From positions 1 to 26,032 of the IMG/VR virus record IMGVR_UViG_2565956624_000001: DNA of 26,032 nucleotides; one strand, written 5' to 3'. Under the pieces are notes generated by a model. It searched no databases. It saw only the letters and a list, made by a program, of their open reading frames with translations, and had not been told where the DNA came from. Position numbers and translations under genes: made by a program. Positions 2,679 to 14,673 of this stretch are shown here, piece by piece (the stretch's first letter is position 1; every line of letters starts with the position of its first letter). Source of the DNA: a virus. Taxonomy: Duplodnaviria > Heunggongvirae > Uroviricota > Caudoviricetes.

Positions 2679-3136
2679 AGGCGTTAATTATCGCCGCTGT
2701 TGTTTGCATCATTGCCAGCCTTACAGCCGTAACATGCCATTACCAGAGTGAGGCGACAAGGTTACAGGAAGAATTAACGACCACGCAAGGCGCACTGAAA
2801 ACAGCAAGTAACACTATTCAGCAGATGAAGGAGCGAAACGCCGAACTGTCAAAACTTGATAAGAGGTATCACGATGAGATTAAAGCTATCAGATCTGACA
2901 TTGCCGATCTGCGCACTGGCATTGATAACGGCACTATCAGGCTGCGCGTCAACGCAATACCCGTGCGAGTGTCCGACTCCGCAGGAACCGCCAGCCGCAT
3001 TGATGGAGCCACCTGCCAACTCTCTAAATCAGCTGAATCAGCTTATCTATCCCTCAGAGAACAACTAAAAACGAAAGACGCACAGATCACTGGCCTACAG
3101 GACTACATCAAAACGCAGTGCTTACGCAAAGAATAA
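2648..3136 (+). CDS. Rz-like i-spanin
   Basis: N-terminal TM ([17 protein letters not shown]) then coiled-coil periplasmic domain; overlaps the endolysin 3' end; contains the embedded Rz1 frame. Exact start (2648, 2654 or later) uncertain. Confidence 0.75.
2874..3068 (+). CDS. Rz1-like o-spanin (lipoprotein) embedded in Rz in the +1 frame
   Basis: ATG 2874 with AAGAGG 7 nt upstream; lipobox LSGC; proline-rich mature part ([18 protein letters not shown]); fully nested in Rz. Confidence 0.75.
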   Translation: MRLKLSDLTLPICALALITALSGCASTQYPCECPTPQEPPAALMEPPANSLNQLNQLIYPSENN

Positions 3137-3397
3137 CAGCGCGTGGACGTGTCGCCGTTTCCGCCAGCCAGCCATAACCGGGCCAATCCTTCCCGCGAGC
3201 GACGGCGGAATAGTCAAAAACACGTAATACCGGATCAACAGTCCCATTAACAGGTCGGCGCTACCTGGGTAGAAGAAAGCGCCCACTTTATAAAATCCCG
3301 GAAACGGTACTCACGAAGCGCCGTTTTCAGTGTTTTATATCATTCCTGGCAATGGATAAACAGGAAGTAAAAGCAAACCAGACAGGAGATTATTCTG

Positions 3398-3982
3398 ATG
3401 GCTAAGGGTAAAGGCTTAAAATTGCCTCACTTCAAGATCCCGCTCTTTGAGCATACAACCGTTTTCTTTTGCCCGACCCGCGAGATGTTTTATGAATTTT
3501 GCGAAAAGGCAGGAATTCCGATCGAACCTGATTTCGAACTGGCAGGAGGATTGACGCTTACTTGCACTGGCGAGAAAGGCGGTAACTTCTACGTGATCGC
3601 AGTATTCGACAATGAGTTAGGAACGCTGGTACATGAAGCGGCGCACACGACATTTCACGTTCTAAGTGATGTGGGCGTCGTAGCGACCACTGATCCCAGC
3701 CATCCGGCAAACGAGACTTACGCTTACATGGTAGGCCGTATCTTTGACGCATTCTTCCCCATCCTGGCGGAATCAAATGAAGCACAGGTGGCAGCAATGC
3801 AGGCCGCTGAAGTCGTAGAGAAGGCATTAGAGCAGGCAGAGAAGGCTACTGATGCAGCAGAGCAGGCAGTAGAGCAGGCAGAGGAGCCGAAAGAAGAGAA
3901 AAAACCAGCTAAGAAAGGCAAACGTAAGCCTAAAGCAAAAGATGCGTATGTGCCGCGTGTGATGAGCTTTAAACGAGGCTAA
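3398..3982 (+). CDS. HExxH-motif protein (putative zinc-metallopeptidase-like) with lysine-rich basic C-terminal tail
   Basis: ATG 3398 with AGGAG upstream; 194 aa; motif LVHEAAHTTFHV; C-terminal EQAEKATDAAEQAVEQAEEPKEEKKPAKKGKRKPKAK. Confidence 0.6.
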   Translation: MAKGKGLKLPHFKIPLFEHTTVFFCPTREMFYEFCEKAGIPIEPDFELAGGLTLTCTGEKGGNFYVIAVFDNELGTLVHEAAHTTFHVLSDVGVVATTDPSHPANETYAYMVGRIFDAFFPILAESNEAQVAAMQAAEVVEKALEQAEKATDAAEQAVEQAEEPKEEKKPAKKGKRKPKAKDAYVPRVMSFKRG

Positions 3983-3984
3983 TT

Positions 3985-4059
3985 ATGATTGACCCGCTCA
4001 TTACCCTTTCTGCCTGCGTCGCTGTATGGCTGGCGATCATGATATTCATTGAAAGCTGA
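3985..4059 (+). CDS. mini-ORF 1, hydrophobic peptide (24 aa) MIDPLITLSACVAVWLAIMIFIES
   Basis: Hand-translated; ATG with GAGG 7 nt upstream; starts 3 nt after the 3982 stop. Confidence 0.3.
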   Translation: MIDPLITLSACVAVWLAIMIFIES

Positions 4060-4069
4060 AGGTGTTCAC

Positions 4070-4150
4070 ATGAACGCATACGAAATGCTATTGCTGGTGG
4101 CTGTAGTTGTAGTCATTGCCGTTGACGTATACCGGGAGTTTAAAAAATGA
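4070..4150 (+). CDS. mini-ORF 2, hydrophobic peptide (26 aa) MNAYEMLLLVAVVVVIAVDVYREFKK
   Basis: Hand-translated; GAAGGTG upstream of the ATG; stop overlaps the next start (ATGA). Confidence 0.3.
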   Translation: MNAYEMLLLVAVVVVIAVDVYREFKK

Positions 4151-4215
4151 AATGGCTTGATTTCTTTTTCCTGATCGTTGCGATTGTTCTTACCATGACC
4201 GCGCTGACTCAATAG
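4147..4215 (+). CDS. mini-ORF 3, hydrophobic peptide (22 aa) MKWLDFFFLIVAIVLTMTALTQ
   Basis: Hand-translated; translationally coupled to mini-ORF 2. Confidence 0.3.
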   Translation: MKWLDFFFLIVAIVLTMTALTQ

Positions 4216-4223
4216 GTGAATAT

Positions 4224-4298
4224 ATGGAAACTATCGAAGCTGTATTATTCGTATGTATCGCGGCGGTTGTTATTGTGGGGTTTATTATCAATGCCTGA
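4224..4298 (+). CDS. mini-ORF 4, hydrophobic peptide (24 aa) METIEAVLFVCIAAVVIVGFIINA
   Basis: Hand-translated; AGGTGA upstream of the ATG. Confidence 0.3.
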   Translation: METIEAVLFVCIAAVVIVGFIINA

Positions 4299-4359
4299 CA
4301 GTGATTTCTTAATCATGGCTACATGCACGTTGTTAGTAGTTATCGTTTTCTTCGCATAA
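4291..4359 (+). CDS. mini-ORF 5, hydrophobic peptide (22 aa) MPDSDFLIMATCTLLVVIVFFA
   Basis: Hand-translated; start overlaps the mini-ORF 4 stop (ATGCCTGA). An internal ATG at 4315 would give a 14-aa version. Confidence 0.25.
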   Translation: MPDSDFLIMATCTLLVVIVFFA

Positions 4360-4369
4360 AGGGTAAACA

Positions 4370-4456
4370 ATGAAAGAGCTATTCGACTGGTTGGAAGTAT
4401 TAACATACTGCGCAACATTAATTGCGTGTTTATATATTCTGTGCAAATGGTTTTGA
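4370..4456 (+). CDS. mini-ORF 6, hydrophobic peptide (28 aa) MKELFDWLEVLTYCATLIACLYILCKWF
   Basis: Hand-translated; AAGGGT upstream; stop lies 11 nt before the terminase small-subunit ATG. Confidence 0.3.
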   Translation: MKELFDWLEVLTYCATLIACLYILCKWF

Positions 4457-4467
4457 GAGGTGAAATT

Positions 4468-4953
4468 ATGGCCCGCACTAAAAAGGCAAAGGCTGACGAT
4501 AAAAAGCCAGCCGCTAAAAAGGTGGGCCGTCCGCATGGTTATACCGAAGAAAAAGCATTAGAAATCTGTGAACTGGTGGCGGATGGTCAGAGTATTAATA
4601 AAATTTCGAAAATGCCTGGTATGCCTACCCGTTCCACAATCCTGAAATGGTTTAGGGATGTACCGGAATTCTCGATCATGTACGCGCGCGCGAAGGAGAT
4701 CGGCTTCGAGGTATTGGCTGATGAAATCATCGATCTGGCTGATGCAGCAGAGAACGCAGATAAAGATCAGTTGCGACGCCACCAACTAATGATTGAAACG
4801 CGCAAGTGGCTACTGGCAAAACTTCAGCCGCGCAAATACGGCGAACGCGTCACACAGGAGATCGTCGGCAACAAGGAAGAAGCGCCCGTTCAGGTTGAAG
4901 TCACGAAAGAAGAGATCGCCCGCATCGTCCAGGAAGTAGAAGACGAGGTGTGA
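4468..4953 (+). CDS. terminase small subunit
   Basis: ATG 4468 with GAGAGGTGA upstream; basic N-terminus with an HTH-like segment (GQSINKISKMPGMPTRSTILKWF); directly upstream of and overlapping the large subunit. Confidence 0.75.
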   Translation: MARTKKAKADDKKPAAKKVGRPHGYTEEKALEICELVADGQSINKISKMPGMPTRSTILKWFRDVPEFSIMYARAKEIGFEVLADEIIDLADAAENADKDQLRRHQLMIETRKWLLAKLQPRKYGERVTQEIVGNKEEAPVQVEVTKEEIARIVQEVEDEV

Positions 4954-4955
4954 TT

Positions 4956-6434
4956 ATGTTGACAATCAAAGAACGAGTTATTCAGTCCAAATGTGAAAAC
5001 GATGGCCTGTTTTTCAACCGCTATTTCTACAAGCAAGCAAACGGTACGAAGATGTTTGTCTCAGGTCATCACATAGCTATCCGCGATGCACTACAACGCG
5101 TTATTAATGGTGAGATAACCCGCCTCATCATTAACATTCCCCCAGGGTACGGTAAAACCATGATCGCTACCATCAACATGATGGCGCGGTCCCTCGCAAT
5201 AAATCCCCGCACAAGATTCCTTCACGTTTCCTATTCCAACAACCTGGCGTTACTCAATTCCTCGACTGTAAGAAACATGATCTGTACGCCTGACTATCAG
5301 GCAATGTGGCCCATGAAGATCCGCAACGATGCCAACTCGAAATCGATGTGGTGGACTGAATACGGTGGCGGCGTGTATGCAACGTCATCGCTGGGCCAGG
5401 TAACTGGGTTCCGTGCTGGGTATATGGAGCCGGGATTTAACGGCGCGTTAATCATCGACGACCCATTAAAACCCGCTGACGCTTACTCTGACGTGGTGAG
5501 AAAGCAGGTAAACACAAACTATAACGACACACTTGCTTCACGTCTGGCAGTGCAAACAACGCCTGTTATCGTCATCATGCAGCGCATCCACTACGATGAT
5601 TTGTCCGGCTACCTGTTACGAGGTGGAAGCGGTGAGAAGTGGTATCACCTTAACCTGCCAGTGAAGATCGACAATAGCGTTGACTACAGGGATTTGTACC
5701 CTGAAAACGAGTTCGCAATACCCATTCCTCACAACCTGCCTGATGGATGGCTGTGGCCTAAAAAGCACAATGACATTCATGAAGCTGGACTGAAAGCACA
5801 CAGGCGGTCATTCGAGGCCCAGTACATGCAGCGCCCGCGTAAATTCGACGAAGAGGGTGCATTGTGGACTGAAGCCATGATAACCGCAGCGCACCGGATG
5901 CAGATAACGCAGGACAAGATCCGCACGGTAATAGCTATCGACCCGGCTACAACATCATCGGAAGAATCGGACGAAACGGGGATCGTTGCATGTTCCGCTT
6001 ACGGTGGCGGTAAAAATGCTCAGTATTCTGTTGATGGCGACTACTCAGGCCGTATGTCTCCTAACGACTGGGCGCAGGCATCAATGAACGCCTACAACAT
6101 CCATGAAGCTGACGCGATAGTTATCGAAACAAACCAGGGCGGCGAAATGGCAGAGGCCACGCTACGTAACGCCGGATTCAAAGGCCGCATTGTTAAGGTG
6201 CACGCAAGCAAGGGTAAATTCGCCCGCGCCGAGCCAATATCGGCACTGTATGCACAGGGAAGGGTGGCCCACACAGGCAGCCTGTACACGCTGGAAAATC
6301 AAATGATGGAATACGTTCCAGCTACCGCTAAAAAATCACCTGACCGCCTCGACGCAATGGTATGGGGTATCACTGAATTAAGCCAGCCGCAGGCAATGGG
6401 CCTCATGTTACCTAAGCGCCTGCGCGGATTTTAA
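4956..6434 (+). CDS. terminase large subunit (ATPase/nuclease)
   Basis: Walker A-like PPGYGKT and DE-type IIDDPLK motifs; about 490 aa; position between small terminase and portal. ATG 4956 has GAGG 8 nt upstream; the track start at 4950 is GTG. Confidence 0.88.
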   Translation: MLTIKERVIQSKCENDGLFFNRYFYKQANGTKMFVSGHHIAIRDALQRVINGEITRLIINIPPGYGKTMIATINMMARSLAINPRTRFLHVSYSNNLALLNSSTVRNMICTPDYQAMWPMKIRNDANSKSMWWTEYGGGVYATSSLGQVTGFRAGYMEPGFNGALIIDDPLKPADAYSDVVRKQVNTNYNDTLASRLAVQTTPVIVIMQRIHYDDLSGYLLRGGSGEKWYHLNLPVKIDNSVDYRDLYPENEFAIPIPHNLPDGWLWPKKHNDIHEAGLKAHRRSFEAQYMQRPRKFDEEGALWTEAMITAAHRMQITQDKIRTVIAIDPATTSSEESDETGIVACSAYGGGKNAQYSVDGDYSGRMSPNDWAQASMNAYNIHEADAIVIETNQGGEMAEATLRNAGFKGRIVKVHASKGKFARAEPISALYAQGRVAHTGSLYTLENQMMEYVPATAKKSPDRLDAMVWGITELSQPQAMGLMLPKRLRGF

Positions 6435-7883: not shown

Positions 7884-8769
7884 CACCGAAGACCCGACCA
7901 TGACAGGTAAGTTACGGTCGGGAGCTATTAAGCGTTTCAAATCCTGCCTGAAGAAAATAGCCGATCCATATATCGCCATACTGGACAGAATACAATATAG
8001 CCTGGCTGTTAATAAGAAATACACCTTCCAGATTTACATGGATGAATTGCACGACATGCTGGAGGACGCCAGCGACATGATTGATGAGATATTCGAGCTA
8101 ACCGACCCGGAAAGTTTTTGGTTTTGGCAGGAATACGTGAAGGTGGCATATCAGCGCGGCACGGCACAGGAATACGCCAACCTTGCCAACCAGTCTGTTA
8201 CTTACTCAAGCGCTTATCCTGATGTATCCGCCGTGCTATCAAGTACGACTTACCGCACGCGCCTTGCCCTTGTTCGTACCCGTGTATTTGAGGAAATGCG
8301 CGGGCTAACAGCACAGATCAAGAAGGATATGGCCCGGCGATTAACCGAAGGGATGGCCCGTGGTTTAAATCCACTGGAAATAGCGCGCACATTGCAGCAG
8401 GAAACGCAATTGCCGCTATACAGGTGCAAACGTATTGCCCGAACTGAAATATGCACAGCGTTACGCACAGCGCGTATGGATGAGGCAGAAGCGGCGACAG
8501 AAGAGCTTAATCTGCGCACCATGCAAATGCACATTTCGGCATTGTCACCGACTACCAGGCTATCGCACGCGCAGCGGCACGGGAAAACATACACCATAGA
8601 TGAGCAGCGCGAATGGTGGAGCAGATCCCCAAATTCAATTAACTGCAAATGTAGCACGATTACCGTATTGGTTGACGAAGACGGTAACATATTAAACAAA
8701 CGAATATTAGATCGGGCGCAAGAAAACTATAAGGTTGCGCACGCTAAATATGGCGAAGATTGGGAGTAA
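7825..8769 (+). CDS. head morphogenesis protein, Mu F / SPP1 gp7-like
   Basis: Position after the portal; conserved-looking block (...CKRIARTEICTALRTARMDEAE...) typical of MuF-family minor head proteins from memory. Start uncertain; 7825 has GAGG upstream but overlaps the portal 3' end by 59 nt. Confidence 0.65.
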   Translation: MMKVKKIIRRIPPAAIMPSNTEDPTMTGKLRSGAIKRFKSCLKKIADPYIAILDRIQYSLAVNKKYTFQIYMDELHDMLEDASDMIDEIFELTDPESFWFWQEYVKVAYQRGTAQEYANLANQSVTYSSAYPDVSAVLSSTTYRTRLALVRTRVFEEMRGLTAQIKKDMARRLTEGMARGLNPLEIARTLQQETQLPLYRCKRIARTEICTALRTARMDEAEAATEELNLRTMQMHISALSPTTRLSHAQRHGKTYTIDEQREWWSRSPNSINCKCSTITVLVDEDGNILNKRILDRAQENYKVAHAKYGEDWE

Positions 8770-10042
8770 AACCGTGAGTAAAGAATTGATTCAGGTTAAT
8801 ACCAAATTAACCGCTAATACCATACGCCGGGAAACGTATAACGGGCGTGAACACATTGTAGTTCCGTCATATACGTTGCCCTTCAATATTGTTATGAATC
8901 GGGAATATTACCCGGAAGCTGAAATTATCGCTAATTACCAGTCGCTGGAGGGAACACTTGCCCCGTTAGGTCATCCTACCGTGGACGGTAAATTTGTTTC
9001 CGCATTTAGCCCGGAAGGATTAAACACGGGTTTTTGTGGGGCGTGGAACAGAAACGTAGAATTACGCGGCAATCGTGTTTATGTGGAAAAATGGGTGGAT
9101 GTTGAAACCGCCAGCCATTCAGAACAGGGCCGCGAATTATTGAGCCGACTGGAAGCACTGGAAAAAGGCGAAAGCAAAGATCCGATCTGGTCATCTGTTG
9201 CAGTATATCGTCAGCGTATGCCAGCTACTGAAGAAATGAAAGCCCAGGGTGCTGACAGCGTTGTCAAAATTATGTCGATTGACCATGACGCTATCTTACT
9301 TCATGAACCGCCAGCCGCATCGCCAGAGCAGGGCGTTGGCCTGATGGTTAACACTGACCAGGCGAAGCCGTTAATGGCGGTGGCAATGAAAGAAAACAGT
9401 TATCGCACGCTTGAAAGACAATTGGAAGAAGCTGCGCGTGAACTGTTCTCCGACGCAGATTATGTCTATGTTGTGGACTTCACCGATAAAGAAGTGACAA
9501 TTGCCACTAATACCGAAAGTGCTCAAGTTTGCACATATGAAAAACAGGCTGATAAAATTATTCTCAATAATGGCGAGCTTGCAACCAATGAGGAAAGTAA
9601 ATCCTGGTTCGCTCAGTTCGCTGAACACCTATCTAATCTTTTCTCCCTGAATGAAAAAATTAAGGCCAATAAATCGGAGGGTGAACCCATGCCTTTGACC
9701 AAAGAAGAACGCGCCGAACTGGTGAAAGAAATTAACGAAAGCATCACCGCTAATATGGCTAATGCAATCGCTGAAGCACTTAAACCAGTACAGGCAAGCG
9801 TAGAAGAATTACAGACCAATCAGAAAGCGATTAAAGAAGAGATCGCAGCAAACGCAGATAAAGAAGTAGCAGAAAAACGCGCCGCAGTAGCAAAAGTGCA
9901 CGGCGAAATTGTTGCTAACGCTTTAAGTGGTGAAGCGTTAGAAGCAATGTTTAAATCCCTGGGCAAAGCCGCGCCGATGGCAACCAACGCAGCAAGCGAA
10001 GGTAAAAAAGGCGAAGTACCAGACTTTAACACTTATTTCTAA
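8750..10042 (+). CDS. capsid scaffolding protein, possibly a protease-scaffold fusion
   Basis: About 430 aa between MuF and the capsid genes; C-terminal half is alanine/glutamate-rich coiled-coil-like (EELQTNQKAIKEEIAANADKEVAEKRAAVAK). N-terminal start 8735, 8750 or 8774 uncertain. Confidence 0.5.
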   Translation: MAKIGSKTVSKELIQVNTKLTANTIRRETYNGREHIVVPSYTLPFNIVMNREYYPEAEIIANYQSLEGTLAPLGHPTVDGKFVSAFSPEGLNTGFCGAWNRNVELRGNRVYVEKWVDVETASHSEQGRELLSRLEALEKGESKDPIWSSVAVYRQRMPATEEMKAQGADSVVKIMSIDHDAILLHEPPAASPEQGVGLMVNTDQAKPLMAVAMKENSYRTLERQLEEAARELFSDADYVYVVDFTDKEVTIATNTESAQVCTYEKQADKIILNNGELATNEESKSWFAQFAEHLSNLFSLNEKIKANKSEGEPMPLTKEERAELVKEINESITANMANAIAEALKPVQASVEELQTNQKAIKEEIAANADKEVAEKRAAVAKVHGEIVANALSGEALEAMFKSLGKAAPMATNAASEGKKGEVPDFNTYF

Positions 10043-13442: not shown

Positions 13443-13919
13443 ATGTCTCAGACTTGCGAAAAAGGCACGTTTACAGGCCGTGACGTTGCTGTATTCTTCG
13501 CTATCGCTTGTCCAAATGCGAAGCCGGAAGCTGAAGCGTACAAAGCGTTAGGCATGATGCGTGGTAAAACACTTTCCGTTGAATGGGAAACCGCTGACGC
13601 CACCGCCGATAAATCAGCCGATTACACGAAAGAATCAATGGTTACTTACAAATCCGTTTCTTTCTCCGGCGACGGTGTGTCCCGCACTGAAGAAATCCAT
13701 AATCAGAAAGCACTGAAACGCCACGTAATTACGCCAGGTGAAACCACCGGATCACAACCTTATGTATGGCTGAAGATCGTTTCTCCTGTAGACGTAACTG
13801 AAGGCCCATTCCTTTGCACTTCCTTTAAAGAAGAAGATCCGCATGATGATGTTTCCACCTGGTCTATTGAGTGCGAAAGCGCTGGCAAGGTAACGGTAGG
13901 CGACGTTCCGCCAGCATAA
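13443..13919 (+). CDS. major tail protein (putative)
   Basis: 158 aa; followed by a strong terminator; precedes the chaperone and tape measure genes. Confidence 0.55.
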   Translation: MSQTCEKGTFTGRDVAVFFAIACPNAKPEAEAYKALGMMRGKTLSVEWETADATADKSADYTKESMVTYKSVSFSGDGVSRTEEIHNQKALKRHVITPGETTGSQPYVWLKIVSPVDVTEGPFLCTSFKEEDPHDDVSTWSIECESAGKVTVGDVPPA

Positions 13920-13937
13920 CAGCCAATATTAACAATC

Positions 13938-13962
13938 GGGGCCATTTGGCCCCTTTTCTTTT
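13938..13962 (+). terminator. intrinsic terminator after the major tail gene
   Basis: GGGGCC-ATTT-GGCCCC hairpin followed by TTTTCTTTT. Confidence 0.65.
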
Positions 13963-13974
13963 AAGGTGAATACT

Positions 13975-14673
13975 ATGATCCATGTTCGTACAGGACAATT
14001 TGCTGCCGTGGTGAACGGTAAGCGCTATGAGTTTAATCCTTGCTTTGCTGCGATGGCTAAAATCGGCAACGATAGTGAGCTTGTCGAATATTTCGCACTT
14101 ATCCACGGCGGCAAATATCCATCACGATTGCCAGCAGATCCAGACCTACGCAATCGCATTCTGGCGCGGTGTTATGGTGAAATAGTTCAGACATCAATGC
14201 ACATCCTGAAATGTTGCTCAGACGACGAAATAGGCCCGTTATTGGGCGAATGCTGGTTTACTCCTTCGGGTAAGTTAAAGTTAAAGCCCGGATTAATGCC
14301 GATCGAGGATATCATCACGCTTGCGCAGCACTGCATGTACCACGGTCTTATTGGTGATGGCCCGGAAGAAGAGTCCGGGGAAATCCCGGAAGGGGAATAT
14401 AAGCCGACTTTTAACGTCCTTGAATTCGTCTATTCTGCCGTTGCTCACCTGGGCTTGTCAGAATCGGAAGCATGGAATATGACAATGACCGGATATAGGG
14501 CCGCTGTACGCGCTAAAACGCCGCCAGACGAAAGAAACGAGAAAAGTAAGCCAAACATTCACATAAATAAACGTGCTTATGACGAGCAAATGGAGGCCGC
14601 TAAAAAGGCACTAGAAAGAATGAAAAATCGTGAGCAAGAAAAGCCCGGTAGATCCGGGCGTTTTGCTAATTGA
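13975..14673 (+). CDS. tail assembly chaperone (putative)
   Basis: Track ORF 13966-14673; ATG 13975 with AAGGTGA upstream; position between major tail and tape measure. No frameshift partner ORF is visible. Confidence 0.4.
   Translation: MIHVRTGQFAAVVNGKRYEFNPCFAAMAKIGNDSELVEYFALIHGGKYPSRLPADPDLRNRILARCYGEIVQTSMHILKCCSDDEIGPLLGECWFTPSGKLKLKPGLMPIEDIITLAQHCMYHGLIGDGPEEESGEIPEGEYKPTFNVLEFVYSAVAHLGLSESEAWNMTMTGYRAAVRAKTPPDERNEKSKPNIHINKRAYDEQMEAAKKALERMKNREQEKPGRSGRFAN
14643..14666 (-). terminator. hairpin likely terminating the minus-strand lipoprotein operon, embedded in the 3' end of the chaperone gene
   Basis: GCCCGG-TAGAT-CCGGGC stem; on the minus strand it is followed by TTTTCTT, on the plus strand by GTTTTGC. 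Confidence 0.45.

Follow-up and report, generated by a model that had tools for sequence, protein, structure and literature searches.

At positions 3398 to 3982 of a 26,032-nucleotide (nt) stretch of DNA from a virus of the class Caudoviricetes (IMG/VR record IMGVR_UViG_2565956624_000001, positions 1 to 26,032, the whole of which we call the window) lies a gene for a protein of 194 amino acids (aa) that, our analysis suggests, is likely to be an active metallopeptidase of the zincin type. The window falls in the mEp021 ("mEpimmI") group, temperate coliphages that are reported to be prevalent in the human gut. In amino acid sequence the protein is 96% identical to mEp044_72 and 93% identical to mEp021_49, both of which are annotated in their records as hypothetical proteins, and a 2025 description of the group leaves the gene undiscussed (PMC11893012). 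The gene is found in all seven sequenced isolates of the mEp021 group and in all 46 viral contigs that we retrieved, and over 33 unique alleles the ratio of nonsynonymous to synonymous substitution rates (dN/dS) is 0.06-0.11. Its product has neither a signal peptide nor a membrane segment (maximum 19-residue hydropathy 0.85).

On the 5' side the gene is preceded by a holin-like open reading frame (ORF), a lysozyme gene (Pfam Phage_lysozyme, 6e-45) and Rz (Phage_lysis, 9e-25), inside which lies an Rz1-like ORF; on the 3' side it is followed by tiny ORFs and then by genes for an Sf6-type small terminase (TerS; 4e-36), TerL, the portal, a MuF-like protein and the head. The preliminary description of this DNA, made from the letters alone, had recorded the 194-aa ORF with a single HEAAH, an Ala/Glu-rich segment and a Lys-rich tail, set between lysis genes and an array of mini-ORFs, and all of this we read again from the sequence. 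It had also spoken of an accessory slot of lambdoid phages, which is roughly right for the slot, although the mEp021 group is classed as non-lambdoid (PMC11893012). The features discussed below are collected in Table 1.

Table 1. Positions in the window of the gene, the parts of its product and the region upstream (pLDDT, predicted local distance difference test; TRF, Tandem Repeats Finder)
Feature	Position	Strand	Basis
Gap between Rz and the gene, 261 nt: conserved core to about 3290, terminator-like hairpin, variable 3350-3379	3137..3397	+	39 distinct loci
Shine-Dalgarno sequence AGGAG, 9 nt 5' of the ATG	3384..3388	+	Read directly from the sequence
Complete gene, 194-aa protein	3398..3982	+	ORF list, ATG start; orthologue of mEp021_49 / mEp044_72
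Putative catalytic domain, aa 1-127, minimal zincin/gluzincin-like predicted fold, PHROG 1365	3398..3778	+	Profile match, AlphaFold
HEAAH, aa 79-83, on helix 74-91: putative Zn ligands H79 and H83, putative general base E80	3632..3646	+	Invariant in 129/129
N105-E106-T-Y108-A-Y110: E106 (start of the 'glutamate helix') as putative third metal ligand, conserved Tyr	3710..3727	+	Alignment of 129
Acidic helix rich in Ala/Glu, aa 128-163, a continuation of the Glu helix	3779..3886	+	AlphaFold, composition, dN/dS 0.11
Degenerate 21-bp (7-aa) tandem repeat inside the Ala/Glu helix	3817..3883	+	TRF period 21, 3.2 copies, 78% matches
Basic tail, aa 164-194 (PKEEKKPAKKGKRKPKAKDAYVPRVMSFKRG), predicted disordered	3887..3979	+	pLDDT about 54, dN/dS 0.10
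C-terminal decapeptide VPRVMSFKRG, candidate docking motif	3950..3979	+	dN/dS 0.02, lowest in the protein

The HExxH...E motif and the predicted fold

A single HExxH is by itself weak evidence and is not rare (in a protein of the same composition a lone one is expected 0.02 times); the HEAAH of our protein, which stands in the context LVHEAAHTTFHV, owes its significance to conservation across the family. We aligned 129 diverse members, mostly 20-35% identical to the query, and found that the only invariant columns are H79, E80, H83 and E106, with G51 (128/129) and Y110 (126/129) nearly so; N105 is kept in 80 members, and position 108 is Phe or Tyr in 119. The spacing from H83 to E106 is 19-20 residues in 115 of the 129 and 23 in the mEp021 clade, giving a family signature HExxH-(19-20)-[N/G]-E-x-[F/Y]-x-Y. 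Read from the alignment, H79, E80, H83 and E106 make up a complete gluzincin catalytic set, namely two His ligands and a downstream Glu ligand together with a Glu after the first His as the base. The third metal ligand that the preliminary description had proposed to look for thus has a candidate at the level of sequence, an invariant Glu 19-23 residues past the second His and at the start of the next predicted helix. H87 of the HTTFH context, on the other hand, does not qualify as a ligand, being His in just 8 of the 129 members.

The predicted structure is consistent with this assignment. The domain modelled alone with AlphaFold from 146 sequences reached a pLDDT of 91.5 and a predicted TM-score of 0.84, with strands at 11-13, 21-25, 51-57 and 63-69 and helices at 28-38, 44-48, 74-91 (carrying HExxH) and 104-127 (with E106 at its start). 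In the full-length AlphaFold2 model (pLDDT 84.7) residues 104-162 form one continuous helix and the tail is disordered (pLDDT about 54). The conserved HExxH motif falls on a predicted helix, 74-91, with pLDDT above 95, as in gluzincins, and the presumed Glu ligand is placed on the following helix by sequence and predicted secondary structure alike. The zincin core has been defined as a mixed beta-sheet and a backing helix that precede the active-site helix (PMC5512222), and in the model strands 21-25, 51-57 and 63-69 and helix 28-38 do precede helix 74-91, so that the predicted topology matches the published core. The earlier reading of HEAAH as the mark of a zincin-type metallopeptidase is thereby supported, by the invariant HExxH and E106 as well as by the modelled topology.

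The domain is assigned to PHROG 1365, a family of unknown function, with E = 1.7e-29 for aa 7-131, which align to positions 9-124 of the 127 in the profile; all 129 members of the wider family match this profile. When 1.84 billion representative proteins were searched exhaustively with a profile, 940 clusters at 50% identity were returned with E<=1e-3, and 252 with E<=1e-10. Most members are standalone proteins of 110-140 aa. The N-terminal ~127 aa of our protein share 44% identity with 'Orf129' from L and ST64T, which are P22-like phages of Salmonella; PHROG 1365 also includes 'hkcC' of HK620. No Pfam, NCBIfam or PADLOC model covers the family; queries of Pfam, NCBIfam and PDB sequences with the single protein gave nothing significant, a Foldseek search of the PDB with the predicted model gave no match, and a literature search on Orf129, hkcC and phage SprT-like or zincin anti-defence proteins found nothing relevant. 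The family profile, run against PDB sequences, matched zinc peptidases only and weakly (myroilysin 0.006, BMP1 0.4, an M35 peptidase 0.85), and these matches all align on the strand entering the HExxH helix.

We also observed a very divergent member of 133 aa (SHEAGH...SSEPFCYLLGW) at 5917-6318 of locus L119, on a 102-kb metagenomic contig that is AT-rich, large and phage-like and has no obvious terminase near the family gene; with it the family reaches well past the temperate phages of enterobacteria.

Could the protein be something other than a peptidase? Zincin-like folds with non-peptidase chemistry exist, and one may imagine another metal-dependent hydrolase (a nuclease, say, whose fold is zincin-like, as in YbeY) or a structural or regulatory factor that is not catalytic. 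Such a view can draw on the finding that no characterised peptidase gives a significant structural or profile match, and on the 13 of 129 members that weakly match a model of HExxH-type hydroxylases (best E 0.0077). We nevertheless consider it very improbable, since all four residues of the putative catalytic set are kept in all 129 members, which argues against a non-catalytic role, since the Glu beside the first His is the general base of peptidases, and since every recognisable weak match is to a peptidase, the hydroxylase matches being at the level of the motif only. Taking the zincin assignment as our working model, H79 and H83 on the helix of the active site and E106, where the next helix starts, would hold a Zn2+ ion, E80 would serve as general base and activate the hydrolytic water for cleavage of the peptide bond, and Y110, four residues past E106, may assist the active site.

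The acidic helix and the basic tail

Beyond the domain the protein continues into a segment (aa 128-163) that is 33% Ala with a net charge of -8 and that is predicted, with pLDDT 95-98 to about aa 160, to prolong the Glu helix into a single helix of 59 residues (aa 104-162). The tandem repeat inside it is an indel hot spot that lies behind the variants of 180, 183, 184, 190 and 194 aa (gap fraction 0.24-0.48 at 3830-3889). The length of the segment is evidently flexible, which fits a spacer or stalk. The last 31 residues, aa 164-194, carry 13 Lys/Arg, including KKPAKKGKRKPKAK, and a net charge of +10.

Over the 33 unique alleles dN/dS is 0.06 in the domain, 0.11 in the acidic helix, 0.10 in the basic tail and 0.02 in the last ten residues. 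These values show strong purifying selection on the tail, which is clearly functional. Binding of DNA or RNA is plausible from its charge; however, the constraint peaks on the decapeptide and not on the lysine run, which makes a specific docking motif or a protein partner at least as likely as DNA binding. The ...FKRG ending is shared by no other protein of the window. We also considered that the tail might mimic a scaffold and so target the capsid, an idea for which we found no support, since the 435-aa scaffold/protease-like protein of the window ends in an acidic ...DFNTYF, unlike the tail.

Among close relatives only the mEp021-like clade has the acidic helix and basic tail, the proteins of Orf129 type ending at about residue 125. 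Among distant relatives, however, there are members no more than 35% identical in the domain (P0297, P0330, P0318, P0241, P0259 and L116) that carry a charged helix followed by a Lys/Pro-rich basic end, with endings such as ...KAPKPSNDKGARRDRR, ...PSKPKGGKRDRS, ...ASKGKGVRRG and ...KPIKEEYVPRIARYKRG; the ending of P0241, YVPRIARYKRG, resembles our decapeptide. A comparable tail is present in about 8 of the 129 clusters. We therefore see in the tail an add-on that is optional but recurs and is under selection, and the simplest way to understand it is as a tether. That it tethers the enzyme to nucleic acid, to a partner or to both is a proposal to which we give a little less than an even chance.

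Genomic placement and possible roles in infection

Across the 112 related loci the gene shares its strand with the lysis and terminase genes and, where our probes detected these, has Rz upstream and the start of TerL 448-1936 nt downstream. Loci that the terminase probes missed and that we examined by eye keep this order with terminases of other types, and often just 3-6 nt separate the family gene from a small-terminase gene of helix-turn-helix (HTH) type; in L003-L006 the distance to TerS is 11 nt. The pre-terminase position holds for at least five combinations of TerS, TerL and portal and for the distant, tail-bearing metagenomic locus L116, the one informative tail-bearing locus of our metagenome scan; searches of IMG/VR for the loci of P0297 and P0259, and of reference genomes for A5, gave no matches. 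In the mEp021 clade 319-1155 nt, filled by unrelated mini-ORFs, separate the stop of the gene from the start of TerS.

In the window this interval (3986-4425) holds tiny ORFs only and is a local hot spot of gain and loss (loci L007-L052). The TerS ORF beyond it, 4426-4953 as found mechanically, starts with GTG at 4426, while the mEp021 annotation (486 nt) implies an ATG at 4468 (MARTKKAKADDKKPAAKKVGRP...). From this ATG the TerS N-terminus is a basic arm rich in Lys, Pro and Ala, similar in composition to the tail of the metallopeptidase.

A position directly before TerS in at least five terminase types, at times only 3-11 nt away, invites the idea of a packaging helper, a DNA-tethered protease that would clear bound or crosslinked proteins from the concatemeric DNA ahead of the terminase, by analogy with SprT/Spartan. 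The weak SprT-like similarity together with the basic tail of the mEp021 clade would suit this idea, as would the similar K/P/A-rich arm, MARTKKAKADDKKPAAKK, with which the TerS of the window begins. We think it quite unlikely all the same: the copies of P22 and HK620 are far from the terminase genes, most family members are tailless, the distance to TerS varies over 319-1155 nt with unrelated mini-ORFs between even within the mEp021 clade, and the third His and the Zn ribbon of SprT are absent.

The linkage to the terminase cannot be taken as strict, because there is a second slot. In P22 and HK620 a 38%-identical paralogue lies on the late strand in the region from gene 16 (with sieA or hkcB) to mnt and the tailspike gene 9. 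The P22 paralogue is an intact ORF of 125 aa (HECAH...NETYCY; L123 3489-3866, which is about 13849-14226 (+) of NC_002371.2) and is orthologous to hkcC of HK620. In the P22 RefSeq record no coding sequence is given for it between sieA and orf59a/mnt, where only the sieA promoter and the mnt terminator are annotated. Of 83 phage records, 12 hold two copies of the family; in ST160, for instance, Orf129 stands ahead of Dec and gp3, and Orf64 follows gp16. Two diverged copies in a genome of 41 kb, both in regions of variable content, speak for an accessory function and against a core role in assembly, and the placement as a whole points to an accessory late protease.

A more specific version of this reading is that the protease is an effector of counter-defence or host takeover, which destroys an immune or housekeeping protein of the host either late in the producer cell, where sensors triggered by terminase, portal or capsid would be at work, or once it has been packaged and injected along with the DNA, as has been proposed for the metallopeptidases (MPTases) of polyvalent proteins. 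The accessory-type slots and the presence in some 41-kb genomes of two paralogues with 38% identity are the typical pattern of conflict genes, the copy in P22 and HK620 is found just past the ejection-protein genes 7, 20 and 16, and the basic tail could ride on DNA. There is also a weak relationship to MPTases of the ArdC type, ArdC being an anti-restriction protein (PMC7213743), and effector roles of MPTases have been proposed in phages using portal and terminase (PMC5512222). Yet no PADLOC or anti-defence family matches, the protein is a standalone domain of ~120 aa and lacks the polyvalent architecture, and in a study of the mEp021 virion, which lists 16 virion proteins, the two outliers are encoded upstream of the lysis region and are not the product of our gene. 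The well-studied P22 virion is not known to hold such a protein either. We regard this version as less likely than not, although among the specific roles considered here it ranks first. The anti-repressor or anti-defence protease of the preliminary description stays speculation, with the gene on the late strand, outside any immunity module and matched by no PADLOC model.

The neighbourhood of head genes raises the question of a morphogenetic protease, one whose processing target would be a head, scaffold, decoration or ejection protein. Head genes adjoin our gene, which is on the late strand, and in L, ST64T and ST160 Orf129 stands directly before Dec. Searches for prohead protease families turned up a single match, that of the low-complexity tail to phrog_3244 ('head maturation protease', E 0.8), which is not significant. 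P22-like phages, however, are not known to use proteolysis in head maturation, and known prohead proteases are serine enzymes. Prohead proteases sit between portal and major capsid whereas our gene is upstream of the terminase, its position relative to the head genes varies, and the canonical slot in the window is filled by a scaffold/protease-like candidate of 435 aa (phrog_760) with a C-terminus unlike the tail. A morphogenetic role thus appears improbable.

Two side observations belong here. In L, ST64T and ST160 Orf129 abuts Orf134 with no gap (L002 3001-3794; L125 22883-23676); Orf134 is annotated as a head decoration protein and has 134 aa, the length of phage L Dec, and the pairing is absent in the mEp021 group. 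The 435-aa protein of the window (8735-10042; phrog_760, a family of unknown function, no Pfam match) is flanked by the MuF-like gene on one side and the genes for decoration and major capsid on the other; its C-terminal region is long, helical and acidic, and the protein is probably the scaffold or a protease-scaffold fusion of the mEp021 group.

On the other side of the gene, the gap that separates it from Rz is more than the GC-rich untranslated spacer of about 260 bp that had been described. The gap is real (261 nt), but it is only modestly GC-rich (0.535 at 3100-3299 against about 0.42-0.50 nearby), and neutral it is not: over 39 distinct mEp021-like loci 3110-3290 is 92-98% identical, falling to 50% at 3350-3379, while Rz is 66-90% and the metallopeptidase gene 82-96% identical in the same comparison, so that 3110-3290 is the most conserved stretch of the region. 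Its variable sites have no codon-phase bias on either strand, it has no Rfam match, and its overall RNA fold is unremarkable (z = -1.1). The conserved element is confined to the mEp021 group and could be a regulatory or DNA site. It is followed at ~3288-3340 by a terminator-like hairpin, GGAAACGG...CGCCGUUUUC, with a U-rich tract, homologous to 'TERM_6' of the mEp021 record. Since this hairpin lies between Rz and the gene, late transcription would have to read through it to reach the gene and the terminase genes. A moron with a promoter of its own was considered and rejected, as no plus-strand sigma-70-like promoter was found in 2900-4500 and the gaps to TerS in other clades are only 3-11 nt.

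The same hairpin weighs against a lysis accessory, by which we mean an enzyme freed through the holin lesions that cuts a peptide link of the envelope (peptidoglycan stem peptides or Lpp). The gene is, to be sure, 261 nt past Rz/Rz1 and at a near-constant distance from it (about 270-340 nt) in the mEp021 clade, its product is without a signal peptide, like canonical endolysins, and some endolysins bear cationic C-terminal tails. But in other clades the gene is 17 to 3900 nt from Rz with unrelated genes between, the link to TerS being tighter, the copies of P22 and HK620 are far from the lysis genes, and there is no similarity to cell-wall peptidase families; we give such a role hardly any credence.

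How, then, might the protein work? The gene would be transcribed with the late genes, lying as it does between the lysis cassette and the terminase genes, and late in infection the enzyme would cut a protein of the host or of the phage. The acidic Ala/Glu helix of the mEp021 clade, ~35 residues long, would prolong the Glu helix as a stalk or spacer, keeping the basic, partner-specific tail apart from the catalytic domain, and the tail would concentrate the enzyme on a polyanion (DNA), on a partner protein, or on both. This combination, a small cytoplasmic protease of gluzincin type with a tail tether that cuts a host or phage protein, we consider moderately probable, and an accessory role (host takeover or counter-defence) more likely than one in core assembly. 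A more far-reaching possibility, which we think unlikely, is that PHROG 1365 constitutes an unrecognised class of minimal late proteases of phages at the head of the packaging operon, duplicated in some genomes, which neutralise immune sensors of late proteins or strip roadblocks from the DNA before it is packaged, and which in some clades are directed to DNA or the packaging machinery by the tail and docking peptide.

The family is abundant and occurs in the model phages P22, L, HK620 and ST64T, yet is unnamed and without a Pfam or NCBIfam model. Its probable identity as a zinc protease is a testable hypothesis in genetically tractable phages. If the substrate is a host defence protein or a DNA-bound protein, a proteolytic mechanism would be added to the late phase of temperate-phage infection; if the gene is dispensable without a phenotype, it is an ordinary accessory gene.

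Comparison with named families

Among the closest known systems is ArdC of plasmid R388, an anti-restriction gluzincin in which, as in our model, HExxH lies on one helix and the Glu ligand on the next, the 'glutamate helix' (PMC7213743). The local motifs are alike (ATLAHEATHWT in ArdC, GTLVHEAAHTT in our protein), and both proteins are borne by mobile elements and joined to a nucleic-acid-binding or basic module. An hhalign comparison with a profile of 33 ArdC-type MPTase-PolyVal sequences gave 69% probability and E 4.3e-5 over 61 columns, a match that covers the beta-hairpin and the HExxH helix only and leaves E106 out of register with E229 of ArdC. One relative, P0118, is labelled 'PolyVal metallopeptidase' automatically by its source database; however, none of the 129 members matches MPTase-PolyVal (PF18818) at E<=0.1, whereas R388 ArdC scores 1.2e-48. 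Moreover, our protein has neither the ArdC-N domain nor the polyvalent architecture, its extensions being low-complexity tails; its domain has ~125 aa with 19-23 residues from the second His to the Glu, where ArdC has 24 and a longer insert; and ArdC acts early in the recipient cell while our gene is on the late strand. Membership in the PolyVal/ArdC family is accordingly rejected, and the relation is kept as remote homology only.

The SprT-like proteins (PF10263: E. coli SprT/YggI, human Spartan, yeast Wss1) likewise have a small zincin domain with HExxH, paired in their eukaryotic members with a DNA-binding region. The SprT-like Pfam model is matched weakly by 19 of the 129 members (best E 1e-4, none reaching threshold) and by our own protein not even at E<=10, and P0195 carries an automatic 'SprT-like' label from its source database. 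The third ligand of Spartan is a His (PMC7213743) and the conserved ligand of our family a Glu, H87 being unconserved, while YggI carries Zn_ribbon_SprT and our protein has no Cys-rich segment. With an hhalign probability against E. coli SprT of 4.9%, no third His and no Zn ribbon, membership in this family is rejected as well.

The third candidate family, Peptidase_M78 (the DNA-damage-responsive gluzincins ImmA/IrrE/CapP), shows no Pfam membership, a single one of the 129 members matching at E 0.099. Unlike ImmA/IrrE, our gene adjoins no gene for an HTH repressor substrate and lies in a late operon rather than an immunity module, and its domain is much smaller than IrrE or CapP and without their extra domains. 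A tail-tethered enzyme would follow a logic like that of ArdC and IrrE/CapP, which are gluzincins associated with DNA. Also among the closest systems are gluzincins of thermolysin type and minimal zincins (for example PDB 3e11, a 'zincin-like metalloprotease' of 114 aa).

The family was thus rightly held not to be assignable by eye, since it matches neither the SprT-like nor the MPTase-PolyVal nor the M78/ImmA-IrrE tests and, as uncurated PHROG 1365, has no name to be given. Because the tests of the SprT and ArdC/PolyVal labels failed, we treat PHROG 1365 as a separate, uncurated family within the zincin clan, with a gluzincin arrangement of ligands like that of ArdC and IrrE but a member of neither family. 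It is, then, a new family-level entry in a well-known superfamily, a solid gain in annotation rather than a categorically new system.

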